DNA of 64,000 bases from contig JAMLJH010000002.1 in assembly GCA_023953615.1 (NCBI GenBank), forward strand, positions 1,040,492 to 1,104,491, written 5' to 3'. This document shows positions 2,381-18,648 of this stretch, piece after piece (within the stretch, counting starts at the first letter, position 1; every line of letters starts with the position of its first letter). The DNA is from Verrucomicrobiia bacterium. Its GTDB lineage: Bacteria > Verrucomicrobiota > Verrucomicrobiia > Limisphaerales > JADLHS01. The position numbers and the translations under genes are program-made. Under the pieces are notes generated by a model that made no database searches, was not told the DNA's origin, and saw only the letters and a program-made list of their open reading frames with translations.

Positions 2381-3012
2381 ACGCAGTAACCCCATTCCGA
2401 TTGGGCGTCCTCGGCTCGGGACGCGGGTCGAACTTTGTCGCCATCGCGGACGCGATTGCGGCTGGCAAAATTCCGGCGGAGATTGGTCTGGTACTGAGCG
2501 ATGTCGAGACGGCGGGAATTTTAACGGAAGCCCGATCCCGCCAACTTCGGGCCCGCTACATTGCGCCGGGAAAATTCCGTACCAAATTGGAAGAAGGCGT
2601 CGAGCAAACCTACGTCGCAGCGTTGCGGGAAGCGCGAGTGGATTTAATCGTGCTGGCCGGTTTCATGCGGGTGCTCAAGGAAACTTTTCTGCGCGCCTTC
2701 GCCGGACGCATTGTGAACATTCATCCGTCGCTGCTGCCTGCGTTTCCGGGTTTGGCCGCGTGGCAACAAGCGCTCGATTACGGAGTGAAAGTCACCGGTT
2801 GCACCGTTCACTTTGTGGATGCCGGAGTGGACTCGGGCGCGATCATTGGTCAGCAACCCGTGCCGGTATTGGACACGGATACCGCGGCTTCGTTGCACGC
2901 CCGCATTCATACGGCGGAACACGAACTATACCCACGCTGCATTGCGTTGCTGGCTCGCAATGAAATCACCCTCGCGGGTCGTCGGGCCGGACGTCGGGCG
3001 GCAGCGGATTGA
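2377..3012 (+). CDS. purN: Phosphoribosylglycinamide formyltransferase
   Basis: Motifs LGSGRGSN, DLIVLAGFMR, NIHPSLLPAFPG and GCTVHFVD.GVDSG. The ATG overlaps the SET-gene TGA (ATGA). Confidence 0.9.
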   Translation: MNAVTPFRLGVLGSGRGSNFVAIADAIAAGKIPAEIGLVLSDVETAGILTEARSRQLRARYIAPGKFRTKLEEGVEQTYVAALREARVDLIVLAGFMRVLKETFLRAFAGRIVNIHPSLLPAFPGLAAWQQALDYGVKVTGCTVHFVDAGVDSGAIIGQQPVPVLDTDTAASLHARIHTAEHELYPRCIALLARNEITLAGRRAGRRAAAD

Positions 3013-3096
3013 ACTTCGGGTCAGTGTGAAATAAACGCGCGGACGCAAGCAATTCACTTGAGACCGGTTCGGAGACCACATAGGATGACGTCGGTG

Positions 3097-3171
3097 GGCG
3101 GGGTAGCCAAGTGGTAAGGCAGGGCTCTGCAAAAGCCTCATTCGTCGGTTCGATTCCGACCTCCGCCTCCA
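3097..3171 (+). tRNA. tRNA-Cys (anticodon GCA), CCA encoded
   Basis: Acceptor GGCGGGG/CTCCGCC (one G-T pair), anticodon loop CTGCAAA, T-arm GTCGG-TTCGATT-CCGAC, then TCCA. Confidence 0.9.
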
Positions 3172-3172
3172 A
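3148..3172 (+). repeat. attL: 25-bp core (gttcgattccgacctccgcctccaa) formed by the 3' end of tRNA-Cys
   Basis: Identical 25-mer recurs at 16667-16691. Confidence 0.8.
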
Positions 3173-3218
3173 CTTCAAGTTGCACTTTTGCAACGAGTTG
3201 CAGAATCCAGAGGGGGCA

Positions 3219-3242
3219 AGTGCCAGTGAAAGTGCCAGTGAA
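3219..3242 (+). promoter_or_regulatory. Tandem 12-mer doublet AGTGCCAGTGAA x2, candidate arm-type integrase binding sites (int-proximal arm)
   Basis: Perfect tandem copies 47 bp after the att core. The same doublet is at 16464-16487, and a variant doublet sits at the same 47-bp offset in element 2. Confidence 0.5.
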
Positions 3243-3385
3243 ATCAATACCGGGATACGACTCATCATCTACTCCGGCATTACTCGGCAATCACTCGCGA
3301 TGACGGGATTCGCAGCCCGTTTGGTGTAGCTGATACACCCAAAGCCACGTTCAGTTTCATAGCTTCGGACAGAAAGTCTGAACTT

Positions 3386-4462
3386 ATGAAACGTCGTTTC
3401 ATCCTCTACCGTCGCAAGCTCGGGGGCACATTCTACGTCGAGGACACCCAAACCCGAAAGCAGGAAAGTCTCGGCACGAAGGATCGCGCCGAGGCCACGT
3501 CCCTGCTCAACGCTCGTAACGAGTCTGTTCGCCAACCGCAACTGAATCTTCAAATCGCCAAGGCATACTTGGCTGGAACGGATTCAGGCGTCTCGACCCG
3601 GACGTGGCAACAAGCACTCGATGCCATTGTCGAAACCAAGAGCGGTTCAACCCAGGATCGCTGGAAACGTGCGGCGAAAGAAACCGCGTTGGACCATATC
3701 CGCCATCGAGTGATTCTGGAAACGCAAGCCGATCATCTGCTCGCCTGCCTCAAGGCGGGCACGGTCAGCACGAATGTTCATCTGAGGAAGTTGCACAACT
3801 TCTGCCTTTCGATGAACTGGCTGCCGTGGCCGCTCATTCCCAAGCGCCTCTGGCCGGAAGTGCGTTTCAAGGAAAGACGCGCCATCACCAGTGAAGAACA
3901 TCAGCGCATCATTGAGCGGGAAAAGAACCCGGAGCGGCGAAGCTTCTACGAACTCTGCTGGCATCTCGGCGGTTCTCAAACCGACATCGCCAATCTCAAG
4001 GCGGAGGACATTGACTGGCCCAACCAGACCATTGCTTATGCCCGGCAAAAGACCGGCAGCCTCGCAATGATTCACTTCGGGCCGGACATTGAGGCGGTTC
4101 TGCGCCGACTCAACTCAACGGGATATTTGTTCCCATATCTGCAATCCGTTCGCTCTGGCGACCGCGCCACGGAATTCAAGCAACGATGCGAAGGATTGGG
4201 AATCAAAGGCGTGTCGCTGCATTCTTACCGCTACGCTTGGGCGGAGCGGGCGAAAACGTGCGGCTACCCGGAACGATTTGCACAGGAAGCGCTCGGTCAC
4301 AACAGCAAGGCTGTGCATCGCTCCTATTCACGAAAGGCCAAGGTGAGGCTGCCCTCGCTGGAAAGCTACGAGAAGCAAAACGTGGAAGGCCGCATCATTC
4401 CATTGCTTCCGCCCGTGCCGAATCCCGAAAGAAACGGTCACTCGATTTCAGCGGCTGGTTAA
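3386..4462 (+). CDS. Tyrosine recombinase / integrase (intact)
   Basis: 358 aa. The C-terminal catalytic region has HSYRYAW (HxxR), LGHNSKAVHRSY (His and catalytic Tyr) and an upstream Arg region. It lies immediately inside attL. Confidence 0.9.
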   Translation: MKRRFILYRRKLGGTFYVEDTQTRKQESLGTKDRAEATSLLNARNESVRQPQLNLQIAKAYLAGTDSGVSTRTWQQALDAIVETKSGSTQDRWKRAAKETALDHIRHRVILETQADHLLACLKAGTVSTNVHLRKLHNFCLSMNWLPWPLIPKRLWPEVRFKERRAITSEEHQRIIEREKNPERRSFYELCWHLGGSQTDIANLKAEDIDWPNQTIAYARQKTGSLAMIHFGPDIEAVLRRLNSTGYLFPYLQSVRSGDRATEFKQRCEGLGIKGVSLHSYRYAWAERAKTCGYPERFAQEALGHNSKAVHRSYSRKAKVRLPSLESYEKQNVEGRIIPLLPPVPNPERNGHSISAAG

Positions 4463-4641
4463 GCGTTCAGTCTCCGGGAATCGTCATAAGCCGTTCCGAG
4501 TCACAAAAAAATAATTCAAATATTTTTCACCCTGCAAACATTGCAAAAAAACGATGTTGAAACCGAAAACCAGCCAAGTCGCCCCGCATAAAATCAGGGT
4601 GCTTTTGTGTCAAGTGTCGGCGGTGACATCGGTTTTGTTCA

Positions 4642-4974
4642 ATGTTTGCAAGGCTTCGGCTGCCAGATTCGCAGTTCAACAAAAGTGCGCCTGATAAAAT
4701 GATGGAGTCGTTGAATGAATCAGCGACGCAACCAAAAAAGCACATTATGGAAGCAACTGAAATGACGGACACACTCAAAAGCATCAACACGACTCCTCAT
4801 CTTTGTCGGAGCAAGGTAAAACAAACCGCGCTGGAAATTGCCGCCGCGATCCGGCCCGCCAATAAATTCAGCCGGGTTGGGATGAGCTTCGTTGAACGCA
4901 TTGAAGCCAAAGTCCGCGCCGCCATCCGTGAGGAAGTCAGGATTCATCCCAGCAAAGGCAAGACACTTTTATGA
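4642..4974 (+). CDS. Hypothetical small protein (start uncertain; alternative ATG at 4699)
   Basis: ORF in an AT-richer spacer with no recognisable motif. Confidence 0.3.
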   Translation: MFARLRLPDSQFNKSAPDKMMESLNESATQPKKHIMEATEMTDTLKSINTTPHLCRSKVKQTALEIAAAIRPANKFSRVGMSFVERIEAKVRAAIREEVRIHPSKGKTLL

Positions 4975-5005
4975 TGAGTCCAACCGATGCGTTGAATCTT
5001 CTGCA

Positions 5006-5305
5006 TCACGCGCGCCCGCCAGTCTTGTGCTTGCGGGCGTTGCGTTCCCGCCAGTAGCTCGCGATAGCATCGCTGGCGCGAGCGAGCCACTTTTCGTCGC
5101 GGCGGAATTGCTCCAGCGTTTCAGTGGCGAAGAACTTCGTGCTGTTGCGGGCTGGGTGGCCCAACGGCTTCAACAGACCTGCTGCAATAAGCATAGGAAT
5201 CTCGTGCGGCTCAAAACCGAGAAACCAAGCAGCCTGCATCGCATCAAGTCGCGCGGGAACGATCTTCCAACTCAAGAATTCGGTTTGTTGCGCAGTTACA
5301 TTCAT
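5006..5305 (-). CDS. Small HTH / excisionase-like DNA-binding protein
   Basis: 99 aa. The ..LDAMQAAWFLGFEPHEIPMLIAAGLLKPLG.. segment resembles the MerR/AlpA-type HTH of mobile-element Xis or regulators. Its start overlaps the stop of the upstream helicase ORF. Confidence 0.45.
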   Translation of the reverse strand: MNVTAQQTEFLSWKIVPARLDAMQAAWFLGFEPHEIPMLIAAGLLKPLGHPARNSTKFFATETLEQFRRDEKWLARASDAIASYWRERNARKHKTGGRA

Positions 5306-8300
5306 ACGCGGACTGCCGCGCGGCGCTTGGGCCGGGGCGAATGGGCTTGGGTTTGTTTCTCGGAAGTCTTCTGTTCGGTCGCCTCGGGAGCATCCGCATC
5401 AACCTGGCTCGGCGCTTGGTTCTTGGTGAGATCGAGCTTTTCTTCGATCTCACTTTGGCGGCGGGTCAACTCTTGGTAGCGCTCCTCGCGCTCGAAGTGT
5501 GCGCCAACTTTGGTTTCCAGCTCTTTTGCCCGCTTCGTGGCGTCGGCGATGTCGTATTCGAGTTTGGATGCGCGCTCCTCAAAGCCTTGGACGTTTGCTT
5601 CGAGTGAACGAATTGTGCCCTGCGCCGTGTCTGTCACTCGTGCGGCATAACTGTTCTTTCCGCGCACAATCATTTCGACGTTGTTGTTGAAGGTGGGACG
5701 CAGGAACAAATCGAAACCCGCAAAGCGTCCAACCCGCACGTCATCGCCGAATCGGTTTTTGATCTTCTCGGCACGACGAACAATCAATTCTCCGGCAATC
5801 CCCCGGTTGTCGAGAACTTGCCCGTCGAGTTCGATGCTGAACTTGTCGCCCGACGTGTCCTGCCGGAGAGCGATGTCCTGACGCAAGTTGGTGAGCCGTC
5901 CCGCGAACGCCTCGGCGTCCTCGTGCGAGCGACGGAGATTGGAGCGGATGCGGTATTGTTCCTCGGCATGGGCGGAACGCAGCCGCGTGAGACGGATCAA
6001 TTCCGCGTCCACCTGGGCCTTTTCAATCACGAGCGGATTACCGGAAGCAATGGCCTTCACCTCGGCGTAGGTCAGTGCGGCCGAGTCCAAATCTTCAAGG
6101 CGGCGGATCGTCATGTCGCCGCTCATCACCTGCGCGATGAACTTCGCCTTCGTCTCCAGTGTCTGCCACATATAGGCGTCAAAGCTCCCCTCCGTGACGT
6201 AGCGGAAAATCTGGATGACGGAATTCTTGTTTCCCTGCCGTAGAATCCGTCCCTCGCGCTGCTCCACGTCTGCCGGTCGCCACGGCGCATCGAAATGGTG
6301 CAAAGCGATGAGGCGTTCCTGAACATTCGTTCCCGAACCCATTTTCTGTGTGCTGCCGAAAAGGACACGCACCTTGCCCGCCCGAACGTCCCGGAATAGA
6401 GACAACTTCGCAGCATCGGAGTCATAGTCTTGAATAAAGGCGATTTCCGCACTCGGCACGCCAAGCTTCTCCAGCTTGTCCGCCGCGTCACGATAAACCG
6501 AAAAGCCCTTGTCCTTCGGCGTCGAGAGATCGCAAAAGACGAGCTGCGCGGAACGCTCCGGCTTCGACTCCTGCCAGATGAGGAAAATGTTTTCGACCGC
6601 CTGATTGACTTTGCCCTGTGGATCGTCCTTCGCGGCTGGCTTCATCAGCCGCAGATCCAAAGCAGCCTTCCTGCCCTCGGACGTAATCTTCAGCATGTTG
6701 TCCACGCTTGGATCAACACGATTGGCTTTCAGGCGCTCCGCGCGCTTGGCAAGTTCCTGAACAAATGCCTTCAACTCTGGCGTTGCTGGCGCATTTCGGA
6801 TGGTTGGCCTTTCGCCATCAAGCTTTGGCCGGGGCAAATTAAGCATTGCAGCGGTTTGCACGTCGGCGGACTGGCGGAACATCTGCATCAGCTCCGGCAC
6901 ATTGATGAAACGCGCAAAGCGCGTGTTCAGACGGTAGCCCGCGCCGTCCGGCGAAAGCTCCATCGCCGTCACCGGCTCGCCGAAAGTGGCCGCCCACGAA
7001 TCGAAGTGATGCAGATTATGTTTCTTCAGCGCGTCGTGCTGGAGATAACGCTGCATCGTGAACATTTCGGCCATGCTGTTGGCGATGGGCGTCCCGGTGG
7101 CGAACACAACGCCGCCCCCGCCGTTCAACGACTGGACGTGGCGCACCTTCAAATACATATCGAACGCCCGCTCGCTCGCGGTCTGCGGAAGCCCCGCGAT
7201 GCGTGTCATCTTGGAAACGTAGAACAGATTTTTGAAGTAGTGGGCCTCGTCCACGAGCAGCCGGTCCACGCCAAGTTCTTCAAACGTCAGCGTGTTGTCC
7301 TTTTTGTGTTCGGCAGCCAGCGTTTGAAGTTTGGCTTCAAGCCGCTTCTTCGCTTTTTCCAGTTCCTTCACCAACCGGCGATTAGAACTGTCGGCGTGTT
7401 CCCGGCGGATCATTTCCAGTTCGTGAAGCTGCTCCTTAAAAAACCGCTCCTGCGTTTCGCGTGAAAGTGGGATGCGTTCAAAACCGGAGTGCGTGACAAT
7501 GACGGCATCCCAATTGCCAGTCGCGATGCGGCTGAACAGTTTCTTGCGTTTGTGCGACTCGAAATCCTCCTTGCCTGCGGCCAGGATATTCGCGCCCGGA
7601 TACAACGTCAGCAACTCGGTAGAAAACTGCCCGAGCATGTGATTGGGGACGACAAACATTGGCTTGCCAGAAAGACCAAGCCGCCGCGATTCCATCGCAG
7701 CGGCAACCATCGTGTAGGTCTTGCCTGCGCCGACGACGTGGGCGAGCAATGTGTTCGGCGTTTGCAGAATCCGCCAGACACCGGCCTTTTGGTGCGAGTG
7801 AAGTTGAATCGCTCCGCTTGCGCCCGGCAACGTCAGGTGATCGCCGTTGAAGGTGCGAACGCGCGTGTGATTGAACGTGTCGTTGTAGAGGCGGCAAAGC
7901 CGTTCGCGGCGCGAGTCATCCGACCAGACCCATTCCTTGAATTGTTCTTTGATGCGTTCCTGCTTTTCGCGCGCGGCCTCGGTTGACTGCGCGTTCACGA
8001 CAGGCTTTTTATCCACCATGTCATAGACCGTAGGCGTTTTCAGATTGAGCGCGTCTTCAATCAATTCGAGCGCGGTATAACGGTCAGTTCCCCAATCTGT
8101 CGTGTTTGCAGTCGCGCCTTTCGCTTCCCAATTCGCGCTGATATGCCAAGTGCCGAGTGCGTGGATGTGGCCGATTTCCACACCGGACGGAATGTGGAGC
8201 AATCCATTCGTGAAATCCTGCACGTCCCCTGGCGGCAGCCAGGACGCGCCAAGGCGAACATCAATTTCCGTGGCCGCGAGGTCGGCTGAAATGAAGTCCG

Positions 8301-8352
8301 TCACCGCAAGCGAGGCCGTCCAATGGGCGGAGGAGCACTTGTTCGACCGCAA
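5302..8352 (-). CDS. SNF2/DEAD-like helicase, matching the C-terminal part of the large methylase-helicase proteins of conjugative elements; appears 5'-truncated
   Basis: Motifs LLAHVVGAGKTY (Walker A / motif I), LLVDEAHYFKN (motif II) and FGSTQKMGSGTNVQ...DAPWRPADVEQREGRILRQGN (motifs V-VI). The N-terminus begins in the LGASWLPPGDVQDF linker with no methyltransferase domain upstream. Confidence 0.7.
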   Translation of the reverse strand: MRSNKCSSAHWTASLAVTDFISADLAATEIDVRLGASWLPPGDVQDFTNGLLHIPSGVEIGHIHALGTWHISANWEAKGATANTTDWGTDRYTALELIEDALNLKTPTVYDMVDKKPVVNAQSTEAAREKQERIKEQFKEWVWSDDSRRERLCRLYNDTFNHTRVRTFNGDHLTLPGASGAIQLHSHQKAGVWRILQTPNTLLAHVVGAGKTYTMVAAAMESRRLGLSGKPMFVVPNHMLGQFSTELLTLYPGANILAAGKEDFESHKRKKLFSRIATGNWDAVIVTHSGFERIPLSRETQERFFKEQLHELEMIRREHADSSNRRLVKELEKAKKRLEAKLQTLAAEHKKDNTLTFEELGVDRLLVDEAHYFKNLFYVSKMTRIAGLPQTASERAFDMYLKVRHVQSLNGGGGVVFATGTPIANSMAEMFTMQRYLQHDALKKHNLHHFDSWAATFGEPVTAMELSPDGAGYRLNTRFARFINVPELMQMFRQSADVQTAAMLNLPRPKLDGERPTIRNAPATPELKAFVQELAKRAERLKANRVDPSVDNMLKITSEGRKAALDLRLMKPAAKDDPQGKVNQAVENIFLIWQESKPERSAQLVFCDLSTPKDKGFSVYRDAADKLEKLGVPSAEIAFIQDYDSDAAKLSLFRDVRAGKVRVLFGSTQKMGSGTNVQERLIALHHFDAPWRPADVEQREGRILRQGNKNSVIQIFRYVTEGSFDAYMWQTLETKAKFIAQVMSGDMTIRRLEDLDSAALTYAEVKAIASGNPLVIEKAQVDAELIRLTRLRSAHAEEQYRIRSNLRRSHEDAEAFAGRLTNLRQDIALRQDTSGDKFSIELDGQVLDNRGIAGELIVRRAEKIKNRFGDDVRVGRFAGFDLFLRPTFNNNVEMIVRGKNSYAARVTDTAQGTIRSLEANVQGFEERASKLEYDIADATKRAKELETKVGAHFEREERYQELTRRQSEIEEKLDLTKNQAPSQVDADAPEATEQKTSEKQTQAHSPRPKRRAAVRV

Positions 8353-10183
8353 TTCGGTCGTGCTCGAATGTCAGGTGTGGCAGGAAGCGTTGGGGCGGGC
8401 GCGCGGCGAAGGTTTTTCAGTTTCCGAACTCAAAGAGTTCACAGGGAAGCGCGGTTACATACGGGATGAGGAACGTCCCGGCGCGGTCACTTTGCGCGAA
8501 GTTCTGCTCCGCGAATGGGAAATCGTTCAGACCGCGAAAGAAGGCGTGGGTGATGCCTGGCCGCTGGTTGCGAATCCGCGTCCGGCAGATCCCAAACTCG
8601 ACGACGAACAACGAGAGGCACTCGATGCTTTGCTCTCCTCCATTAACACCGTGTCTGTGTTTCGCGGCGGCGCGGGCACGGGCAAAAGTTTTGTCCTGCA
8701 CGAGCTGGTCGAACAACTTCGGGAGTCTGGTCGGCGTGTGGTTGTTCTCGCCCCGCAGCGTCAGCAAGTCGTGGAAATGGAGAAGGCAGGATTTCCGTCA
8801 CCCTCTACGGTCGCGAATTTTATCCTCAAGCGCGAACTGGCTGAACGCGCGGTCGTTGTCGTGGACGAAGCGGGGCAAATCGGCGGGCGGCAAATGCTCG
8901 AATTGATGCGGCTGGTCCGCGAGCGGAATGCCCGGCTGATTCTGTCGGGCGACACGCGGCAGCACGGAGCTGTTGAGGCTTCGGACGCATTGCTGGCAAT
9001 CGAGCGGCACTCCGGCGTCAGGCCAGTCGAGTTGCACAAGATTCGGCGGCAAGACCCGGCGCTTGGCAAAGACGCCGATGAGCGCATACGCATCAAGGAT
9101 TATCGGAACGCAGTCGAATCAGCGGCGGCGGGCAAGTTGAGCGAATCGTTTGAACGCCTCGACAAGATGGGTGCGGTGGTGGCGTGCGGCTTGGGAGATC
9201 AAGCTGACAAGCTGGCGAAAGAATATCTCCGGCTCGCGGAACAAGAGGCTTCGGCGGTGGTCGTCTCGCAAACATGGAGTGAAGTGCATCGCGTCAACAC
9301 GCGCGTCCGCGATGCACTCAAAGACAAAGGATTGCTCGGCGCAAACGACACGATCGTTCAAGTGCTGGACAAGCTCGACTTGACGAACGCGCAGAAACGC
9401 GACGAACGGTTTTACCCGCCTGATGCCGTCGTCGTCTTCAATCAGAAAGTGCGCGAAGCTGAACCGGGTGCGAAAGGAAAGCTGGCGGGCATTTTGAAAT
9501 CGAGCGTGCTCGTCGAAGTTGGCGGAAGATTCATCACCGTTTCAAACAAAGTCCTGGATCACGTTACGGTTTATCTCCCGCGTGAAATCTCGGTTGCACA
9601 AGGCGACCGGCTTCATCTCAAAGCGAATCGCAAGCTGGCTTCAGGTGGTCGCGTCACGAATGGCGAACTTGTCACCGTGAAGTTGGTTCGTCCCGATGGC
9701 GCAGTTGAACTCACCGATGGCCGCGTCCTGGACAAAACTTTCCGCGAGTTTCTGCCGGGCTACGCCGTCACGTCCTACGGCTCGCAAGGCAAGACGGTGG
9801 ATTACGTCCTGTTCTCCGACTCGACCGTCAAGGCCGCGACGAACGCGCAGCAATGGTATGTGACCATTTCGCGCGGGCGGCGTGGCATCCGAATCTTCAC
9901 GCCGGACAAAGAGCAATTGCGCGAGAATGTGACGCGCTCCGGCCACAGGCCGCTGGCGATGGAGTTGGTGGCCGGTCTTGTCCCGCGCCGTGGCGTCCGC
10001 CTTTGGGATCGCTTGCACGTCCATCTCCTCCGATTTGGACGACGCGCCGCCGACACTTTTTGCCGGTTGAAACTGGCGCGTCGTCATCACCATCAACCCA
10101 CGCAAAAGCATGAACACAAAAACACCCGAATGTTGGTCGAGCGACCCGAACGCTCACGGCGTCAAAATCGAACTGTCGGCTGA
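8291..10183 (+). CDS. MOBF (TrwC/TraI-type) relaxase, helicase portion only (RecD-like AAA_30 + UvrD_C); N-terminal relaxase domain missing
   Basis: AVQWAEEHLFDRNSVV (linker typical after the relaxase domain), LDDEQREALDALL, FRGGAGTGKS (Walker A), VVVVDEAGQ and a C-terminal YAVTSYGSQGKTVD. No HUH or catalytic Tyr domain is present; upstream sequence belongs to the opposite-strand helicase. Confidence 0.7.
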   Translation: MKSVTASEAVQWAEEHLFDRNSVVLECQVWQEALGRARGEGFSVSELKEFTGKRGYIRDEERPGAVTLREVLLREWEIVQTAKEGVGDAWPLVANPRPADPKLDDEQREALDALLSSINTVSVFRGGAGTGKSFVLHELVEQLRESGRRVVVLAPQRQQVVEMEKAGFPSPSTVANFILKRELAERAVVVVDEAGQIGGRQMLELMRLVRERNARLILSGDTRQHGAVEASDALLAIERHSGVRPVELHKIRRQDPALGKDADERIRIKDYRNAVESAAAGKLSESFERLDKMGAVVACGLGDQADKLAKEYLRLAEQEASAVVVSQTWSEVHRVNTRVRDALKDKGLLGANDTIVQVLDKLDLTNAQKRDERFYPPDAVVVFNQKVREAEPGAKGKLAGILKSSVLVEVGGRFITVSNKVLDHVTVYLPREISVAQGDRLHLKANRKLASGGRVTNGELVTVKLVRPDGAVELTDGRVLDKTFREFLPGYAVTSYGSQGKTVDYVLFSDSTVKAATNAQQWYVTISRGRRGIRIFTPDKEQLRENVTRSGHRPLAMELVAGLVPRRGVRLWDRLHVHLLRFGRRAADTFCRLKLARRHHHQPTQKHEHKNTRMLVERPERSRRQNRTVG

Positions 10184-10466
10184 ACGGAGTCTGCTGCTGC
10201 CGTTTGATCAATTCGCCTTCGCCGAACTCAAAACCGAAGGGAAGCAGCAACACCTCCGTTTGGTCTTTGCCACGCACGAGGTTTCGATTCGCGGCAACGC
10301 CTTGCGCCGAATCGAGACAACGATGCAGCGAATGGAATTGTCATTCCTCGCCGTTTTGTCGAGCAGTGAACGAAAACTCATCGCGGAAGGCCAGCCAGTG
10401 ATTCACGACATCACCGTTACGGAGGCAAATGCGGCTGGCAAGCAACATGAACAGGTCAAATCCTGA
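10110..10466 (+). CDS. Hypothetical protein
   Basis: 118-aa ORF following the relaxase remnant, with no recognisable motif. Confidence 0.4.
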   Translation: MNTKTPECWSSDPNAHGVKIELSAERSLLLPFDQFAFAELKTEGKQQHLRLVFATHEVSIRGNALRRIETTMQRMELSFLAVLSSSERKLIAEGQPVIHDITVTEANAAGKQHEQVKS

Positions 10467-10475
10467 TCGGTCGGC

Positions 10476-11459
10476 TTATTTCGAGGGCCGGAACACGCGG
10501 ATTTCCGCGTCTTGTTGTCCGTGCTGCGGGACAGCGAGGAAAAACTCATTCAATTCGGCGGAGAAAAAGGAAGTCCGCGCGCCGGTGCGGGTGGGAATTC
10601 GTTCACGCAACTGGTAATGATCCGCATCGCGCTGGTCAACGACATCTACGAAACCTTCGCCACAGGAGACATAAAGGCGTTTAAGCGCGGCATCATAAAA
10701 CACGTCATCGGTGTCGCCGGAAATCGCAAAGTTGGTCACGGGTTTACCGGTCGTGGTATCGAAGACAACCAACCGTGCCGGTTTGCGGCAACCGACGAAC
10801 AGGCGGTGATTCGCTTCATCCAGCGCCATCGGAAAGTTGGCTTGGAACTCCTTCATCGGCCATGTCGTGGTGACGGTTTGCTTCTCGCGGTCAATAACGG
10901 CGATTTGTTTTGCGTCAGGCACGTTCACGAAGATGCGGTTTCCGTTCTTCTCCAATTGAAATGATTCCGGGTGTCCCCCGAGCTTTATGTTGCCGGTTTG
11001 TTTCATCGTCGCGGAATCAATGATGGCGAGTGCGCCGTCGCCATAGCCGTTGTAGATCAATTTCGTTTTGGCATCGAAGCGTGCGTTGTCGGCGTCGTCC
11101 AGTGAGCCGATGCTTTTCGCCAACTCGTAGGAAACGCCGTCGAACAATTTGAACGTGCCGTCGTTTCCGTTGGCGACGCCGATTTGGTTCGCTTCCGGCA
11201 GAAAGACCACGCCTGTCGGCATGTGAAGACCGTTGATGCTCTTGACCCGCTTGCCCGCTGCCACGTCGAGCACTTCAAGGGTGTCGTTTCCAAGTGCAGC
11301 GACAAAGAGACGGTGATTCTTTGCATCTATGGCAAAATGGTCGAACCGTCCTTTGACACCGGGTAGCGGAATGGTCTTGATGAGTTTGAGCGTGTTGGAT
11401 TCCTGCGCCCCAGCGTAGAGGGCGACGGAACAGAGCAGCGATAAAGCAAGTGACCGCAT
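10476..11459 (-). CDS. Secreted YncE-like / lactonase-type 7-bladed beta-propeller protein
   Basis: Signal peptide MRSLALSLLCSVALYAGA. Repeated ..RLFV...G...V.V(I)D.. blades. Confidence 0.65.
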   Translation of the reverse strand: MRSLALSLLCSVALYAGAQESNTLKLIKTIPLPGVKGRFDHFAIDAKNHRLFVAALGNDTLEVLDVAAGKRVKSINGLHMPTGVVFLPEANQIGVANGNDGTFKLFDGVSYELAKSIGSLDDADNARFDAKTKLIYNGYGDGALAIIDSATMKQTGNIKLGGHPESFQLEKNGNRIFVNVPDAKQIAVIDREKQTVTTTWPMKEFQANFPMALDEANHRLFVGCRKPARLVVFDTTTGKPVTNFAISGDTDDVFYDAALKRLYVSCGEGFVDVVDQRDADHYQLRERIPTRTGARTSFFSAELNEFFLAVPQHGQQDAEIRVFRPSK

Positions 11460-11469
11460 AGGTTGAGAG

Positions 11470-12090
11470 CTATTTGCTGCCGTAAGTGAAATCATCGAAC
11501 AGCGTCACGCTATCGGCCTTTGTCCACACGCCGACCATGCCCGCGTCCTTGAAGCTGTCGTCGCTGGCTTCGATAACTTTCTTGCCGTCAAACGTGACGG
11601 TGAATTTATTTCCCGCAAAATCCACGCGCAACGTGTGCCATACGCCAGACGCGACCTTGGTGTCGGAGTTTTTGAACGAGACGCGCTTGCCTTTGATCGT
11701 GTGGTAAATGGTCACGTTGTCTTCGAGCGCGTTGGCGCGGGCGATGTAATAATTGTCCGCATCCGCGCAGCGCCAGATGACGCCGCCCGCCTGATCTTCC
11801 TTGCCGCTGACGGGCTTAAACTTCACTTCGACGAAGCCATCCTTGAGGCTCGTGTCATCCTTGATGCAAACCGGGTAAGTCGCTTCGCCGGATTGTTTGA
11901 GGACGTTTGGTTTGCTCGGCGCGGTGTCGTCCTTTTCAACCGTCCACTTCGCGTTGCCGCTGCCGGTCTTGGTCGCGGTCCAACCGGCTGGAGCTTCGCC
12001 GATTTTGGCGTCGTCGAAATTGACGGTCTGTGCGAGCGCAGCATTGGCTAGAACACTCGTTCCGATAATCATAGCAGTGATAGTTTTCAT
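11470..12090 (-). CDS. Secreted DUF1080 (3-keto-disaccharide hydrolase / LamG-like) domain protein
   Basis: Signal peptide, then W.V....(D/G)...L...., FVEVKFK and GVW.KADSVTLFDDF, typical of DUF1080. Confidence 0.65.
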   Translation of the reverse strand: MKTITAMIIGTSVLANAALAQTVNFDDAKIGEAPAGWTATKTGSGNAKWTVEKDDTAPSKPNVLKQSGEATYPVCIKDDTSLKDGFVEVKFKPVSGKEDQAGGVIWRCADADNYYIARANALEDNVTIYHTIKGKRVSFKNSDTKVASGVWHTLRVDFAGNKFTVTFDGKKVIEASDDSFKDAGMVGVWTKADSVTLFDDFTYGSK

Positions 12091-12103
12091 AGTTAGAGTG
12101 TTT

Positions 12104-12136
12104 CACCGGCAACCGCTCGCTCGCATGTTGCCGGTG
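12104..12136 (-). terminator. Perfect 10-bp stem hairpin (caccggcaac / gttgccggtg) between two co-oriented genes
   Basis: Inverted repeat seen directly. There is no clear U-tract, so a terminator role is uncertain. Confidence 0.25.
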
Positions 12137-12149
12137 AGGTTGCGTGATT

Positions 12150-12512
12150 TCATTTTACGGCGGAAACGTAGATGACCTGTGTGCCGCCTTTTTTGACGAG
12201 CGTTCCCTCGACCGTGACGGTTTCGGCCATTTTATCAATCAACACATCCTTGCCCGGCTGATGGTCTTTGATGCCCATCATCACATAGATTTCGCCTTTT
12301 TCGGTGAGCAGACCGATGGGATTTCCCGCCTTGGCGCACGCCGTCCCGCATTTTTTGTGCTCCGCACCGTGGTCGCCGCCTTCGAGGTAACACCATAAGT
12401 CAACAACCTCGCCTTTGACCGTGATGGCGTCGCCTTTCGGATCGGCGAACGTGGGAGTGACGCCCAACAGAAACAGCGGCAAAGCCGCTATCGCTACACG
12501 AATGATTTTCAT
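12150..12512 (-). CDS. Small secreted Cys/His-containing protein, unknown function
   Basis: Signal peptide MKIIRVAIAALPLFLLGVTPTFA. Segment WCYLEGGDHGAEHKKCGTACAKAG. The ATG at 12512 is chosen over the longer track ORF. Confidence 0.55.
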   Translation of the reverse strand: MKIIRVAIAALPLFLLGVTPTFADPKGDAITVKGEVVDLWCYLEGGDHGAEHKKCGTACAKAGNPIGLLTEKGEIYVMMGIKDHQPGKDVLIDKMAETVTVEGTLVKKGGTQVIYVSAVK

Positions 12513-12559
12513 TTTGTTCCTTTCATTTATCTCCGGGCATCCCGAAGAAATTGTTTTGG

Positions 12560-13447
12560 TTACTTGCTTTGCGTGGCGAGCGCGGCTTTCAGCGCCGCCG
12601 CCAAATCGGCCGTCTTGCCTCTGCCCCAATAATGCAGAAAGAGAATGCGCGGGTTCTCGTGCGTCATGTGACTGTGAATCGCCACGATGTTGATCCCGTC
12701 ATGGCGAAGCGATTTCAACACCTGCTGCAATTCGTCTTCCAACACGGCGAAATCGCCATCCACGAGCGCATTGTCGTCCGCGCCCGCAAACGCCGCCCAG
12801 GTGTTCACGCCCATTTCCTTGGTCATTTCGCAGCCACACGGCATTTTCGTTGTGCGTCCGATGACGATTTTGAACATGCCGTTGTTCGCCTGCCCCTTGA
12901 CGCCGAGCAGGTCTTCGATGGTTTTGCCGGTAATGGAATTCGTGGCGGGCATAGCCGCACCGCCGAAGCTTTTCCCTGGCTGCGAATTCACCGCGCGGAT
13001 TTCCTTCACCTTGTCCCACATTTTGCGAACAGCGGCGGCGAGCTTGTCTGCCTCGCCCATGCCGCTGATGTGCATGAAATAAACCTTCGGCTCGTCATAA
13101 AAGAAATGGTTGTGCAGGGCGGTGACGGAAAGACCGTTGTCCAAGGCGACGCTCATCACGGGATTCACCTCGTCCTGAAACAGCACCGTGTCGCCCATCA
13201 CCATCACGTCGTCGGTCTTTTGTTCCGTGAACGCGGCCCATGAAGCCAGCCCCATAAACGGCGGCATCGTCCAACCGTCCACGGCGATTTTTACGTCGTT
13301 ACGCGGCGAAGTGACTTTGAAGACTCCTTCGTTGGTGTTGAGCGTGCCTTTGACACCCGTGAGTTGTTCGATTTTGGCGGTGTCGAGACCTGCGCCGTGA
13401 CAACACAAATTGACGGCAGCAAGTGCAAACAGAATGGCTTTTTTCAT
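12560..13447 (-). CDS. Secreted DUF1259 (LpqO/LppY-like) two-repeat protein
   Basis: Signal peptide MKKAILFALAAVNLC. The two halves each end in ..ALHNHFF..P.V.FMH / ..AIHSHMTHE.PRILFLH, as I recall for DUF1259. Confidence 0.55.
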   Translation of the reverse strand: MKKAILFALAAVNLCCHGAGLDTAKIEQLTGVKGTLNTNEGVFKVTSPRNDVKIAVDGWTMPPFMGLASWAAFTEQKTDDVMVMGDTVLFQDEVNPVMSVALDNGLSVTALHNHFFYDEPKVYFMHISGMGEADKLAAAVRKMWDKVKEIRAVNSQPGKSFGGAAMPATNSITGKTIEDLLGVKGQANNGMFKIVIGRTTKMPCGCEMTKEMGVNTWAAFAGADDNALVDGDFAVLEDELQQVLKSLRHDGINIVAIHSHMTHENPRILFLHYWGRGKTADLAAALKAALATQSK

Positions 13448-13484
13448 GGTGACTGTTTTGATAAAGGGTTTGGTCGTGATTTTT

Positions 13485-14111
13485 TCAAGAGGTGACGCGG
13501 ATATTCGCGAACGCAACCGTGCCGGTGTGAACCTGGAGTCCGATGAAGCCGGAGTCGGGGTCTTCGCTCTTTTTCTTGCCGCGAAATTGCTCGCTTGCCG
13601 CAGCGGTGAAAACCGTGGCGGGCTGGCCGTTGAGTTTCACTTCGTATGTGCGGTCGGTCACTTTGATCTCGTAGGAGTGCCAAACGCCGGAAGCGAGACG
13701 CTGATTGTTCGTGTAGTTCTGCTGGCCAACCGCTGTGCCCTGGGTTTTGATTTTGTAAATCGCCCCCGTGCGGTTGAAGAACAAGCCGTCAGCTTCGTTC
13801 TTCCGCGTGTCGCCGCGCGCTTCTTCATCAATCTGGATTTCGTAGCCGGTATCCACCGCGACCGTGGCGAGGTTTCCGGGCACGTCCGGTCCGGGTGTTC
13901 CAGGCAACACCGGCTTGCGCGGATCACGGAAGCGAACGAAGACACCGGAGTTGTCGTTGAAACCGCCGCGCGGATGCGGCAGGCAGAAATCGAGGCGCAG
14001 CGTGAAGTTATTGAATTGCTTCCCGGTGTAGTAGAGCAGGCCGATGCCATTGCCAGGTTGAGCGATCAATGAGCGGCCCGCGATGACAAAGCGATTGCCT
14101 CCTCCCGGCAT
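13485..14111 (-). CDS. DUF1080-domain protein, no signal peptide in this frame (possibly N-terminally damaged)
   Basis: ..YTGKQFNNFTLRLDF.., GYEIQIDE and GFIGLQVHTGTVAFANIRV are typical DUF1080 motifs. Confidence 0.6.
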   Translation of the reverse strand: MPGGGNRFVIAGRSLIAQPGNGIGLLYYTGKQFNNFTLRLDFCLPHPRGGFNDNSGVFVRFRDPRKPVLPGTPGPDVPGNLATVAVDTGYEIQIDEEARGDTRKNEADGLFFNRTGAIYKIKTQGTAVGQQNYTNNQRLASGVWHSYEIKVTDRTYEVKLNGQPATVFTAAASEQFRGKKKSEDPDSGFIGLQVHTGTVAFANIRVTS

Positions 14112-14329
14112 CTCGGCCAGCTTCGCGCGCTAGATTTGGGAATCGCCATCGGTTCGGCGGCGAAGACGGCGAGCCTCAACAACATTGATATGCGCTGCCA
14201 GACGCGAATCGCCGCCGCCGCGAGACACTTGAAAGTCATTCAAGCTGATCTTGCCGTAGCTGTGTCCATGAGCGTGAGTCACAAGAACATTTTCTTCGAC
14301 AAGAAGATGCCGGAGATAAAGTTCCCCGC

Positions 14330-15580
14330 GTGAGCGGTTGGCGCAACATCGGGGAGTTTCTCGCACTGCGGCGGAATACGTCGCTGATGCTCGTCGCCCT
14401 CGTCCTGGCTGGCACGGGCGAAAGACTTTGGCTTGGCTTCGCACCCAAATACATCGAAACGCTCGGTGGCGGAATTCTCATTATCGGCTTGTTCGACGCG
14501 CTGCAAACTTTCCTTGGCGCGATCTACGCCTATCCTGGCGGCTGGCTCACCGACCATTGGGGACAGCGCCGTTCACTGTTGTTGTTCAGCGTGATTTCCG
14601 TGGCGGGCTACATTCTGGTTTTGCTCTGGCCACACTGGCTAGCGCTGTTGCTCGGCTCGTTTCTATTTCTGGCATGGAGCGCTTTATCACTGCCCGCGAC
14701 ATTTTCAGTCGTCGCCACGTCGCTTGAAAAACATCAGCACACGATGGGCATCGGCGTGCAATCCATGATTCGTCGTGTGCCGATGATGCTCGGCCCGCTC
14801 ATCGGCGGCTTGTTGCTCACGCGCTACGGCTGGACGGACGGCGTGCGTTACGCACTCGCGCTCTGCATCGCGATGAGCCTGTTGACGGCGGCGTTTCAAT
14901 GGCTCATGTTCGAGCCGCATGGAAAATCCGCAGCGCCGGGCTACATTCCACCTGACGCGGGGGGTTCATTCCTCGGCGTCGTCAAATCTTTCACGCCTGC
15001 GTTGCGCGAACTTCTCGTGAGCGACATCCTCATCCGCTTCTGCGAACGGATTCCGTATGCGTTCGTGATTTTGTGGGCGATGGATTCCGGCGGCGTGACG
15101 GCGCAACAATTTGGTTATCTCATCACGTTTGAAATGGTCACGGCAATGCTCTGCTACATTCCTGTCGCGCATCTCGCCGACAAATACGGTCGCCGTCCAT
15201 TCGTGCTGGCGACGTTCATTTTCTTCACACTGTTTCCGTTGTCGCTGCTGTGGGCGCACAATTTCGCGTGGTTGGCACTGGCGTTCGTCGTGCGCGGGCT
15301 GAAGGAATTTGGTGAACCTGCGCGCAAGGCACTCATCATCGGCGAGGCCACGCCCGAACTTCGCGCGCGGACATACGGCGCGTATTATCTTATCCGCGAT
15401 TGCTTCGTAACGAGTGGTTCATTTCTCGGCGCGTGGCTGTGGCACATCAGCCCGCAAGCGAATTTCCTCGGTGCGGCGGTTTGCGGCGCGCTCGGCACAA
15501 TCTGGTTTTGGTGGTTCATCTACCGAAGGAATGAAGTAACGCGGATAGGTCCAGAATTGCAAAAGTCGGTCAAAGTGTAG
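14330..15580 (+). CDS. MFS transporter
   Basis: 416 aa, about 12 hydrophobic segments, and a GWLTDHWGQRRSLL loop (MFS motif A-like). Start codon is GTG. Confidence 0.8.
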   Translation: MSGWRNIGEFLALRRNTSLMLVALVLAGTGERLWLGFAPKYIETLGGGILIIGLFDALQTFLGAIYAYPGGWLTDHWGQRRSLLLFSVISVAGYILVLLWPHWLALLLGSFLFLAWSALSLPATFSVVATSLEKHQHTMGIGVQSMIRRVPMMLGPLIGGLLLTRYGWTDGVRYALALCIAMSLLTAAFQWLMFEPHGKSAAPGYIPPDAGGSFLGVVKSFTPALRELLVSDILIRFCERIPYAFVILWAMDSGGVTAQQFGYLITFEMVTAMLCYIPVAHLADKYGRRPFVLATFIFFTLFPLSLLWAHNFAWLALAFVVRGLKEFGEPARKALIIGEATPELRARTYGAYYLIRDCFVTSGSFLGAWLWHISPQANFLGAAVCGALGTIWFWWFIYRRNEVTRIGPELQKSVKV

Positions 15581-15608
15581 CCTCCTTTTTTCAGGAAGCC
15601 GTTACCGG

Positions 15609-16154
15609 CTAGGAGAAAAAATAGCCAAGGGAGCGAAGCGATGAGTGGTTGGGATTACCGATGACTATGTGATCGAGGACTTCGATTTTGAGAAGTTGCC
15701 CGGCTCGGATGAGGTCGCGGGTGATTTTGATGTCAGCTTCCGAAGGAGTTGATTCACCGCTCGGATGATTGTGCGCGATGATGATTGCAGCGGCACTCGC
15801 CATGATGGCTAAACGGAACACCTCCCTGGGATGACAGAGAATTGTATCCATCGTTCCAATGGACACCAGATAGTGGCCCTTGATGCGCCGACGTGTGTTG
15901 AGGATGAACACCACCAAACATTCACATTCAGAATTGAAGTAAGGATGTGTCGCGATATGCGTTTTCCAATAGGCGGCTGCCTGATCCGGTGTTTCGCACT
16001 GTTGCATGGTGTCGGGTGTAGGACATTCCCGAAGTGATACGATTTTCCATTCCTGCGGTTGAGACGGGAATTTGATCGGCTTGACGATGGTGTTCGTGGG
16101 TTGCGGAGTGATTGCGGGGCATCCGGTGGAGATGAGGTTTTCCGTTGTGTTCAT
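15609..16154 (-). CDS. RadC-like JAB-domain protein (DUF2466 type found on mobile elements)
   Basis: The HNHPSGESTPSEADIKITRDL signature and C-terminal VLDHIVIG. The ATG at 16154 is preferred; the 272-aa track ORF extension is low-complexity. Confidence 0.75.
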   Translation of the reverse strand: MNTTENLISTGCPAITPQPTNTIVKPIKFPSQPQEWKIVSLRECPTPDTMQQCETPDQAAAYWKTHIATHPYFNSECECLVVFILNTRRRIKGHYLVSIGTMDTILCHPREVFRLAIMASAAAIIIAHNHPSGESTPSEADIKITRDLIRAGQLLKIEVLDHIVIGNPNHSSLRSLGYFFS

Positions 16155-16160
16155 GTTTTG

Positions 16161-16355
16161 CGTTTCGTTCTGAAGGAGCGGGACTGCTCTCTTCACCGCA
16201 CCGGGAGAGCAGCCCCGCTCCTGACGAAACGCACCCGTCTGCGCCCGCGCCGCCGGGCAGCGGAGCATCAGCAACGAAGTGACAGCGGACGAAAGGATGT
16301 TTCGTCCGCTGGCGCGAGGTTGCGCGGAGCAACCAGAGGCGCGGGTGCAGACGGG
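16161..16355 (-). other. Densely nested hairpin region upstream of the radC-like gene (candidate structured RNA or single-strand DNA element)
   Basis: Pairings: 16161-16167/16225-16231, 16175-16191/16205-16221 (17 bp, 1 mismatch), 16234-16251/16338-16355 (18 bp, 1 mismatch) and 16283-16294/16300-16311 (12 bp perfect). Confidence 0.4.
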
Positions 16356-16463
16356 ATGAACACAGCGGATAACCTCATCGGCGGATGCCCGCTGCGTTGG
16401 CAAGCAAACACCGATGGCGAATGCCATTTAGCCCTGATAAACAGGGCATTTTTTACAAAAAGA

Positions 16464-16487
16464 AGTGCCAGTGAAAGTGCCAGTGAA
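16464..16487 (+). promoter_or_regulatory. AGTGCCAGTGAA x2 doublet, candidate arm-type integrase sites (distal arm of element 1)
   Basis: Identical to 3219-3242 and in the same orientation, about 180 bp before the second att core. Confidence 0.45.
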
Positions 16488-16666
16488 CAGGTGATAAATG
16501 AGTAATTGGCGAGTAGTTGATTGGCATCGAGTGCGTGATGCCGAGTGCTTGACAGATGTGCTAAAACGCCTGATTCTATTGGCGTTCGTTAGTTATGAGG
16601 CTGTTCGCCTCTGGTGGTGGGGCGGTAATCGCGGAGTAGTGAGTTTCGGAAAAACTCCCTGCATCT

Positions 16667-16691
16667 GTTCGATTCCGACCTCCGCCTCCAA
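16667..16691 (+). repeat. Second copy of the 25-bp tRNA-Cys 3'-end core (attR of element 1 and left att of element 2)
   Basis: Exact match to 3148-3172. The upstream sequence cannot form a T-arm, so this is not a tRNA gene. Confidence 0.8.
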
Positions 16692-16737
16692 TTCCAAACA
16701 ACTTTTGGACAAGGAGTTACAAATCTCACAGCCCTCA

Positions 16738-16761
16738 AGTGCCAGCAAAAGTGCCAGCAGA
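16738..16761 (+). promoter_or_regulatory. Variant 12-mer doublet AGTGCCAGCAAA / AGTGCCAGCAGA, candidate arm-type sites of element 2
   Basis: Begins 47 bp after the att core, the same offset as 3219 relative to 3172. Confidence 0.45.
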
Positions 16762-16902
16762 TTTGTGACTCGGAATTACTCAACAACAACTCCGCGATCA
16801 CCCCGGCACGACTTGCTGAAACGCAATTGGCCGTGCGTTTGGTGTCATTGAGACACCTGCCCTTCGTCCTCGCTTGGCAGGCTCGAACAAAAAATTCGAG
16901 CC

Positions 16903-17556
16903 ATGAAAAACCGATTTCGCCTCTACCGCCGCAAGAAGGGCGGCATGTTCTACGCCCACGATTCCGAAACTGGCAAACAGGAGAGCCTCGGAACAAAAGA
17001 CCGCGCCGAAGCGACCACTCTGCTCAACGCCCGCAACGAATCGTTTCGCCAGCCTCAACTCAATCTCCACATTGCCAAAGCCTACCTGGCGGGGACGGAT
17101 TCCGGCGTCTCCACGCGGACCTGGCAGGACGCCCTGAACGCGATCATTGAAAACAAGGAGGGTTCGACCAAAGATCGCTGGGTTCGGGCGGCAAAGGAGC
17201 CGGCGCTCGACTTGATTCGCGGGAAGGTCATCCTTGAAACCCAAGCCGAGCAACTGCTCGCCTGCCTCAAGGCTGGCACGGTCAGCACCAACGTCCATTT
17301 GCGCAAGCTCCACAACTTCTGCCTCGCGATGAACTGGCTGCCGTGGCCGATCATTCCGAAGCGACTCTGGCCGGAAGTCCGCTTTCAACCCAAGCGCGCC
17401 ATCACGCTGGAGGAACATCAGCGGATCATTGAGCGAGAGAAGAACCCCGAGCGACAGAGCTTCTACGAACTCTGCTGGCATCTGGGCGGCTCGCAAACGG
17501 ACATCGCCAACCTCAAGGCCGAGGACGTTGACTGGCCCAACCGGACCATTCCATAA
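16903..17556 (+). pseudogene. Tyrosine integrase paralog, truncated after codon ~216 (no catalytic domain)
   Basis: Aligns colinearly with the integrase at 3386-4462, with about 35 differences in 217 residues by manual alignment. Homology stops near 17550. Confidence 0.8.
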
Positions 17557-18624
17557 TCAGTAGTAGTGGCCTTTGGTCTTGGCGATGAGTTCACGAACAG
17601 AGCGGTCGCCAGTGATGTCATCGCCGGGGCGACCGCGAGCGGAGCGAGGGGGAAGGCCAGAACCAGCGATGATGATCGCGCCGGCGCTGCCCTGGCCGGC
17701 GGCAGTCGAGAGCGTGCTCAGGATCGCCGCCATGCCGGTTGCACCCACGGTGGCGAGGGGCAGCCCGGTGGTGGAGGCGACGGCCGCCGCACCCGCCGTG
17801 GTGGCAGCGGTCTGGAGAAAACTGCCGACTGCACCAGAAATGAGCTGGCCGCCTGCGAGCGTGCCGTAGCTGATAACCTTCTGGATGACGACCGGTGCAG
17901 AAATGGTACTGAACACGATCCAAAAGGCCACGACCGCCACTCCAAACGTGGCTTGCAGGGAATAGAGCGTGGCGGTTGGGTCAATGAATTTGAAAGCCGG
18001 GTCGGTCATGAAATCGAGAATGCCCTGGGTGATGAGCGCCGCGACGGCCCAGCCGAGCGGCCAGAGCAGCACGCCAACGATGTGCATCAGGTAGCGGCTG
18101 CCGATCGACCGCAGCGGGCGAATGGCCATAAAGCCAATCATTAGGGGCGAGAGCGCGTAGGCGGTGAACAGGATGAACTTCTGAATGATGTAGGCCCAGA
18201 ACAGCAGCAGCGACGCGAACTGACCAAAGAGCCAGAGAAAGCCAGAGATGAGAAGTTCAACGGTAAAACTGTTGAGGTCGCTCAAAATATCCCACCAAGA
18301 ACGGTCAGTCCCGGTATCACGCTTGATGATGAGCAACTGATTGTATTGGTCTTGAACGTTCGACGGATCAACGCCCAAGCCGTCGAGAATGGAGGTTTGC
18401 AGGAGTTGTTGGGCCTGATTGCCCCATTGCGGCAGCATTACCAGCAGGGCGGTCAACACGAACAAGCGCACGATGTGCAAGATGAGCGTCTTTCCGTTGA
18501 AGCCGTGGACGACCAAAAGGATCGTCCCGACGATGAACAACATGAACGCCACGATGCGCAGCAATTCGTGCAGTTCGACGCACTTTTGCAGGAACGTCGG
18601 GAAGAGTTGTTCAAAGGTTGCCAT
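17557..18624 (-). CDS. trbL: TrbL/VirB6-family type IV secretion inner-membrane protein
   Basis: 355 aa with multiple TM segments and a Gly/Ala-rich tail, located downstream of a TrbJ-like gene as in P-type T4SS operons. Confidence 0.65.
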   Translation of the reverse strand: MATFEQLFPTFLQKCVELHELLRIVAFMLFIVGTILLVVHGFNGKTLILHIVRLFVLTALLVMLPQWGNQAQQLLQTSILDGLGVDPSNVQDQYNQLLIIKRDTGTDRSWWDILSDLNSFTVELLISGFLWLFGQFASLLLFWAYIIQKFILFTAYALSPLMIGFMAIRPLRSIGSRYLMHIVGVLLWPLGWAVAALITQGILDFMTDPAFKFIDPTATLYSLQATFGVAVVAFWIVFSTISAPVVIQKVISYGTLAGGQLISGAVGSFLQTAATTAGAAAVASTTGLPLATVGATGMAAILSTLSTAAGQGSAGAIIIAGSGLPPRSARGRPGDDITGDRSVRELIAKTKGHYY

Positions 18625-18648
18625 AGTCGGGACGATTTGAGGGGGCGG

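Follow-up and report, generated by a model that had tools for sequence, protein, structure and literature searches.

For λ Int, the tyrosine recombinase tetramer and the bridging of arm DNA to core DNA are established (PMC4880445). In the Cluster K1 mycobacteriophages, Pope et al. (2011) described two pairs of 11-bp putative arm-type sites that flank the core, one of which is separated from it by a stem-loop; differences between the arms were matched by substitutions in the N-terminal part of the integrase, at positions 17 and 19 (PMC3203893). The locus described here lies on contig JAMLJH010000002.1 of a Verrucomicrobiia bacterium, in a stretch of 64,000 nt that was analyzed as a whole and is called the window; all coordinates are window positions. 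A 13.5-kb segment of the window (~3173-16691), designated element 1, is in all likelihood a mobile island inserted into the 3' end of a tRNA-Cys gene. Comparison of sequences strongly supports the view that its tyrosine integrase, Int1, is heterobivalent like that of λ, and that the 12-bp half-sites found as a tandem doublet at each end of the island are very probably the arm-type sites of this integrase. A second, truncated element (element 2) follows directly.

The att core is the repeat GTTCGATTCCGACCTCCGCCTCCAA, which consists of the last 24 bases of the tRNA-Cys gene plus one; the identity starts within the T-loop. A third copy of this 25-bp sequence is absent from the window. The two 24-mers of element 1 match exactly and lie 13.2 kb apart, one at each end. 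Both int-proximal doublets, that of element 1 and that of element 2, start 47 bp past the last base of their core (3219 against 3172 and 16738 against 16691, respectively). The distal doublet of element 1 ends at 16487, which leaves 179 bases before the attR core starts at 16667. The 8-mer AGTGCCAG is present in seven copies in the window, compared to 1.3 expected, and none of 100 shuffles reached seven; six of the seven copies fall inside the three doublets. Further degenerate half-sites within two mismatches of a 9-mer were not found in the arms of element 1. A check of the sequence thus reproduced what the initial annotation had reported about the doublets, namely their positions, their sequences, their common orientation and the 47-bp offset.

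The catalytic domain of Int1 is recognized as PF00589 (residues 167-319, E-value 3.7e-9), and a model of the protein has XerA, λ Int, Brujita Int and P2 Int among its Foldseek matches. The integrase of element 2, on the other hand, is not matched by PF00589. Its translation ends at residue 217, short of the catalytic domain, and for this reason element 2 is regarded as a remnant. Element 2 is a decayed neighbor with a different arm specificity, and a partner for its doublet was not found in the window.

The position of the doublet is conserved among relatives. A search for related integrases gave 7137 matches at E ≤ 1e-10 among 8000 candidates scored, and all named sources belong to the Verrucomicrobiota. 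Eighty genomic loci, with integrases 58-97% identical to Int1, were compared; here and below, related loci carry L-numbers and related proteins P-numbers. Upstream of int, 60 of the genomic loci have a core of the tRNA-Cys type, and in 59 of these the doublet starts 42-49 bp past the core; the homologous elements do, therefore, carry a repeat at a conserved offset, as the arm-site proposal of the initial annotation required. The offset is unchanged where the core resembles a Leu, Ser or Thr tRNA, and it amounts to 46-49 bp in the metagenomic attL junctions in which the tRNA end can be measured. The half-sites repeat every 12 bp, and every 11 bp in a few loci. In 29 unique type-1 arms, no other block from the core to the start codon of int is as conserved as the 24-bp doublet, which, across integrases of such diversity, is probably under purifying selection. 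Locus L014 carries a second copy of the doublet 115 bp downstream (9725-9863), and L033 and L035 have a longer arm with the doublet ~277 bp before int, so that the length of the arm is not invariant even within type 1. Some of the related elements resemble integrative and conjugative elements (ICEs), encoding TrbI and a giant helicase. A scan of IMG/VR with the type-1 24-mer gave no matches, which argues that the elements are not phage-like.

The sequence of the doublet varies among relatives, and at least 12 types of half-site can be distinguished. These include AGTGCCAGTGAA, AGTGCCAGCA(A/G)A, ACTGCCAGCAAA, ACTGTCAGTGAA, ACTTCCAGTGAA, AGCTCCAGCAAA, ACGGACACCAAA, ACGGGCAC(C/T)AAA and ATGGGCATCAAA. 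The initial annotation had proposed that the 12-mer varies together with the integrase. It does, specifically with residues 6, 8, 19 and 21 of the N-terminal domain. Within the half-site, bases 8-10 follow residue 19, along with residues 6 and 21, and bases 2-5 follow residue 8. In mutual information with the half-site residue 19 ranks first, and it fully predicts base 8; residue 6 ranks first for base 10. Glu or Gln at position 19 is found with TG at bases 9-10, His with CA or CG, and Val or Ile with C(C/T)A. At position 8, Tyr is paired with GTGC or CTGC, Phe with CTGT, CTTC or CTC, and Ile or Val with CGG(A/G). No such co-variation was seen with the catalytic domain or with the neighboring small gene.

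These pairings recur in clades of the C-terminal domain only 58-69% identical to Int1, those of residue 19 in clades of 58-88% identity, and both the TG and the CA type are found within a single C-terminal-domain clade. The choice between TG and CA is perfectly predicted by residues 6, 19 and 21 (mutual information equal to the entropy H, 0.69). Furthermore, all four combinations of Tyr or Phe at position 8 with Glu or His/Gln at position 19 are found with the matching DNA halves, and the two halves of the half-site are therefore likely to be read separately. The rule was also applied prospectively. Three proteins with Arg6 and His19 (P0012, P0086 and P0084) were looked up, and the predicted CA doublet was present in each; in an independent metagenomic set of unique sequences covering attL plus int, the rule held in 21 cases out of 21. 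Arm specificity is separable from core specificity, since a given doublet can accompany tRNA cores of the Cys, Leu, Ser or Thr kind.

The fold predicted for the N-terminal domain of Int1 places three of the co-varying residues on its β-strands. In AlphaFold2 models of Int1 the domain (mean confidence score, pLDDT, 83.5) consists of strands 5-9, 16-20 and 26-28 and a helix comprising residues 34-49. Residues 6 and 8 are on the first strand and residue 19 is on the second. The domain is thus predicted to be a three-stranded β-sheet plus a helix resembling the arm-binding domain of λ Int. When the model of the domain was compared with 350,542 chains of the PDB using Foldseek, the top two matches were both λ Int (1z1b_A and 5j0n_F), the former superimposing with a root-mean-square deviation of 1.3 Å over 42 columns with 31% identity. 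A sequence search of the PDB with the same domain had no match at E ≤ 10.

The occurrence of the doublet in both arms is not limited to element 1. L055, a 5.2-kb element whose half-sites are of the ACTGTCAGTGAA type, carries a doublet of its own at each end, and the two copies agree at 23 of 24 positions. In tandem arrays int is preceded by a partial tRNA, and the doublet of the upstream neighbor is found ~95-183 bp ahead of this tRNA. Metagenomes were scanned with AGTGCCAGYRRAAGTGCCAGYR, a 22-nt pattern, which retrieved at least 120 stretches, and 80 of these were listed and classified. Among the 80 listed matches, 35 are attL-like, having either the 3' end of a tRNA 46-49 bp upstream or int downstream, and 28 are attR-like, with a tRNA fragment downstream at ~142 bp in the CA types and at ~170-181 bp in the TG types; contig ends truncate another 9, and about 5 have no relation to these elements. 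As most of the listed matches are attL- or attR-like, the motif is associated with att sites and, contrary to what would have spoken against the arm-site proposal, is not scattered independently of integrases. The few matches in unrelated contexts mean that the 22-nt motif is not exclusive to these elements. They (L105, L139, L162, L134 and L152) represent three copies of one locus, one Ser/Ala-rich coding repeat and one single match that has no att features nearby.

The search for complete elements covered 10-kb flanks and, beyond the window, gave only L055 and a pair of doublets in L007. The latter are AAACCTTCAACG-type doublets located 1.2 kb apart, at 194-217 and 1420-1443 of that locus, the right one 155 bp before a partial tRNA core. 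The pair encloses a homolog (405-710) of the small gene discussed in the next paragraph, but no integrase, and the left doublet is not preceded by a recognizable core. The pair may mark an element that is decayed or non-autonomous. The element upstream in L043 was set aside, as it has an unrelated and oppositely oriented integrase and no matching repeats.

Arm-type sites of the integrase are not the only function that could be imagined for the doublets. They could be the sites of another protein encoded by the element, for example of the small gene product that is the candidate excisionase or recombination directionality factor (RDF) of element 1 (Table 1). Sites of Xis and other RDFs are also typically tandem direct repeats, such as λ X1, X1.5 and X2 (PMC4880445). 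Homologs of the small gene, detected by tblastn, adjoin int at the equivalent position in ~70 related loci; the protein itself has no match in Pfam. The central segment of the small protein is, however, nearly invariant across arm types, and none of its columns segregates with TG versus CA (maximum mutual information 0.46 against an entropy of 0.69), whereas residues 6, 19 and 21 of the integrase do. Moreover, RDF sites are usually confined to a single arm, unlike the doublets, which are present in both, and the recombinant protein P0012 ties the site to the N-terminal domain of the integrase and not to its remainder. This alternative is therefore very unlikely. By eye, the central segment of the small protein, LGFEPHEIPMLIAAGLLKPLG, looks like a helix-turn-helix.

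It is slightly less likely again that the int-proximal doublet serves mainly as an operator or promoter for int, and that its counterpart at the far end acts on int only in the excised circle. Where the core is of the tRNA-Cys type, the doublet is indeed located 114-172 bp before the int start codon, and both doublets would be upstream of int in attP. Yet it is the offset to the core that is fixed (42-49 bp), whereas the distance to the ATG varies over this range and reaches 276-277 bp in L014, L033 and L035. A promoter of the σ70 type was not found in the region 3090-3420. Since the specificity tracks the N-terminal domain of the integrase, an operator role would in any case still run through arm-type binding by the integrase.

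There are several points that weigh against the assignment of the doublets as arm-type sites. The P' doublet is just ~140-170 bp away from the codons of the N-terminal domain, so that part of the co-variation could be due to co-inheritance of one DNA segment. This is illustrated by L081, which encodes P0012. Its chimeric integrase has the attL arm and ~30 N-terminal residues of the L075/L078 lineage, and the remainder of the protein is 85% identical to Int1; to judge from the sequence, arm and N-terminal domain have been exchanged as a module. Because they are carried together on a foreign C-terminal body, linkage contributes to the correlation. Both ends are seen in one sequence for only three elements (element 1 of the window, L055 and the 1.2-kb pair in L007). 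The Foldseek E-values of the two λ Int matches are weak (0.18 and 0.47), as is expected for a domain of 65 residues, and none of the arm-binding families of Pfam (Arm-DNA-bind_1 to 5, DUF6538 and similar) matched at threshold, with DUF6538 scoring 16.1 bits against a cut-off of 27. No sites for an accessory bending protein, be it the integration host factor (IHF), Xis or an RDF, could be assigned between arm and core. Finally, binding of the integrase to the doublets and their role in recombination are deduced by comparison.

The notion that the doublets have no sequence-specific function, but are tandem duplications hitch-hiking with the 5' end of int, is in keeping with the closeness of the P' doublet to the N-terminal codons and with the transfer of both as one block in recombinants, but it is the least credible of the alternatives, because there is an identical copy 13 kb away at the other end of element 1, L055 likewise has a matching copy at its far end, the flanks of the doublet are less conserved than the doublet itself, its offset to the core is fixed, and the pairings of residue and base recur in lineages whose arms are otherwise unalignable. 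Replication iterons were rejected too, as there are just two copies per end and these are fixed relative to the att core. The proposal of the initial annotation, that the doublets are arm-type sites for the N-terminal domain of a λ-like integrase, is strongly supported by the comparison of loci, by the co-variation and by the predicted fold.

If the doublets are arm-type sites, the excised attP would comprise ~300 bp in the order doublet, 179 bases, core, 46 bases, doublet and int. It would contain two half-sites in the P' arm and two in the P arm, all in direct orientation. The number of half-sites, four per element, would equal that of the protomers in a tyrosine recombinase tetramer, each protomer docking one half-site via the β-sheet of its N-terminal domain. 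The core-binding and catalytic domains would meanwhile hold the core in the T-loop region of the tRNA, and host or element factors would bend the arms back onto it. The specificity would be read by side chains of the β-sheet, with residues 6, 19 and 21 corresponding to bases 8-10, and residue 8 to bases 2-5. The architecture, conservation and co-variation of the sequences and the fold prediction were directly established; binding, stoichiometry, bending and the requirement for recombination we infer from them.

Related islands are commonly arrayed in tandem at a single tRNA. The doublets on the two sides of a tandem junction, that of the left attR and that of the right attL, were compared at 36 junctions (window 16464-16761; L007, L014, L015, L045-L047, L055, L058, L070, L073, L075, L078 and L089-L204). 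They are of the same type at one junction, compared to 7.2 expected by shuffling (P about 0.002), a bias to which assembly collapse of identical neighbors or sampling bias could contribute. The difference in arm type between tandem neighbors suggests orthogonality of the stacked elements. It is conceivable, although the idea is offered tentatively, that arm specificity has diversified via the residue-to-base code (residue 19 to bases 8-10, residue 8 to bases 2-5) under selection for the orthogonality of co-resident elements. If this is true, islands with the same core can stack in tandem without mutual excision or deletion, as each integrase assembles on its own arms only, and the family constitutes a natural, re-programmable set of arm-binding modules. 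With the attP architecture and likely boundaries defined, the doublets can be used to delimit these very abundant Verrucomicrobiota islands and ICEs in metagenome-assembled genomes. The natural arm specificities, at least 12 in number, also provide a data set for the reading of DNA by a β-sheet and for the design of specificity swaps.

Table 1. Coordinates of the features of elements 1 and 2 in the window; the att and integrase features are given first, followed by the other features of the arms and the small gene.
Feature	Position	Strand	Description
tRNA-Cys(GCA)	3097-3171	+	Integration target, its 3' part forming the att core; ARAGORN; Rfam tRNA, 63.6 bits
attL core, 25-bp repeat	3148-3172	+	From T-loop to 3' end of the tRNA; identical to 16667-16691
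Int-proximal (P'-arm) doublet, element 1	3219-3242	+	AGTGCCAGTGAA twice, as half-sites 3219-3230 and 3231-3242; candidate arm-type sites of Int1
int1	3386-4462	+	Tyrosine integrase, 358 aa; N-terminal arm-binding-like domain (~1-50), core-binding region, catalytic domain
Distal (P-arm) doublet, element 1	16464-16487	+	24-mer identical to the int-proximal copy, same orientation
attR core of element 1 and attL core of remnant element 2	16667-16691	+	
Int-proximal doublet, remnant element 2	16738-16761	+	AGTGCCAGCAAA / AGTGCCAGCAGA; type also in L017-L030 and L082-L085
int2	16903-17556	+	Truncated after residue 217, ahead of the catalytic domain; N-terminal domain of the R6/H19 type (translation)
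Two-tier hairpin between core and arm doublet	3167-3203	+	Begins at the CCA end of the tRNA; counterpart at 16686-16716
Three [CT]ACTC[CG]G repeats, phased ~11 bp	3270-3302	+	Between doublet and int; read from the sequence
P-arm spacer, 179 bp	16488-16666	+	Block conservation among type-1 elements of different samples (L116, L128, L098, L140, L102, L148)
Conserved small gene, 99 aa	5006-5305	-	Downstream of int, on the opposite strand, as in most related loci; candidate recombination directionality factor/excisionase

The arms contain several features besides the doublets. A hairpin is predicted between core and doublet in homologous arms; in 55 unique arms folded with ViennaRNA the median z is -2.6, with 69% below -2, and the structure is kept while the sequence changes. 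RNAalifold found no consensus pairs in this spacer, the hairpins being out of register, and folding of each sequence separately was used instead. The hairpin may be a terminator or a processing signal of the restored tRNA. A stem-loop of similar kind was noted in the attP of CrimD (PMC3203893). The [CT]ACTC[CG]G repeats are found inverted (GAGTA/GAGTG) in the distal arm, at 16499-16550 and 16632-16645, and similar ACTCGC motifs are present in arms of other doublet types. They may represent a second class of repeats that persists across arm types, with sites for a conserved accessory factor.

A promoter-like sequence in the P-arm spacer, TTGACA-N17/18-TATTGG, is directed toward the core, which is immediately preceded by a stem-loop (16641-16657). 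The only match in an Rfam scan of 3000-17200 was the tRNA, so that the spacer block is no RNA known to Rfam. The block may function as a promoter directed outward, as a small RNA or as a set of sites for accessory proteins. An imperfect palindrome is situated ~45-65 bp before the start codon of each int (3320-3342 and 16838-16860). Its sequence is TTTGGTGTA-gctga-TACACCCAA in element 1; in element 2 it is GGTGTC-attga-GACACC, where an A/T to C/G change is compensatory. Several other lineages have this palindrome too, and it may act as an operator or as a hairpin of the 5' untranslated region.

Element 1 also encodes SNF2/ResIII-like and AAA_30/TraI-like helicases and RadC, besides cargo genes. 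Immediately past the truncation point of int2, the minus strand of 17557-19497 has a 355-aa open reading frame with no Pfam match and encodes a DUF4141 protein. Genes for TetR, DUF6448, HlyD and MacB/FtsX proteins come next, and the right boundary of the remnant was not located.

Like λ Int, Int1 is a tyrosine integrase with an extra small N-terminal domain, and a repeated motif distinct from the core is present in both arms of its predicted attP. The P' sites are tandem and start a few tens of base pairs from the core in both systems, and heterobivalent bridging (PMC4880445) is the mechanism proposed here by analogy. There are 2+2 direct sites at 12-bp spacing in element 1, whereas λ has five sites (P1, P2 and P'1-P'3), used in different subsets for integration and excision. 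Unlike in λ, sites for IHF, Xis and Fis were not identified, the N-terminal domain has no detectable sequence family, and the target is the 3' end of a tRNA gene. The λ-type paradigm of integration is unchanged by the present findings.

The 'complex' tyrosine recombinases of ICEs and islands, which have an arm-binding (AB) domain (Smyshlyaev et al., 2021; PMC8138268), share with Int1 the order of arm-binding, core-binding and catalytic domains, an integrase borne by the mobile genetic element and accessory arm sites. They differ from it in that the N-terminal domain of Int1 matches no Pfam arm-binding model at threshold.

The mycobacteriophages resemble these elements in the arrangement of the sites. 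In L5 and Giles, the arm-type sites of attP are pairs in direct orientation. The K1 phages CrimD, Anaya and Adephagia have a core derived from a tRNA or tmRNA next to int, and related integrases that share a core have different arm sequences (PMC3203893), although one of the CrimD pairs is inverted. The paired arm-type sites described here, co-varying with N-terminal residues of the integrase, are thus of a known kind, exemplified by the Cluster K mycobacteriophages (PMC3203893). The initial annotation cited no known description of such sites for this integrase lineage. None was found in the literature for the Verrucomicrobiota lineage, but the phenomenon as such is not new. The mycobacteriophages are phages of Actinobacteria with few specificity variants, whereas the elements considered here are non-phage islands and ICEs of Verrucomicrobiota, in which at least 12 types occur in many independent lineages. 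What these elements add is a large natural series of specificities, and tandem neighbors that almost always differ in arm type.

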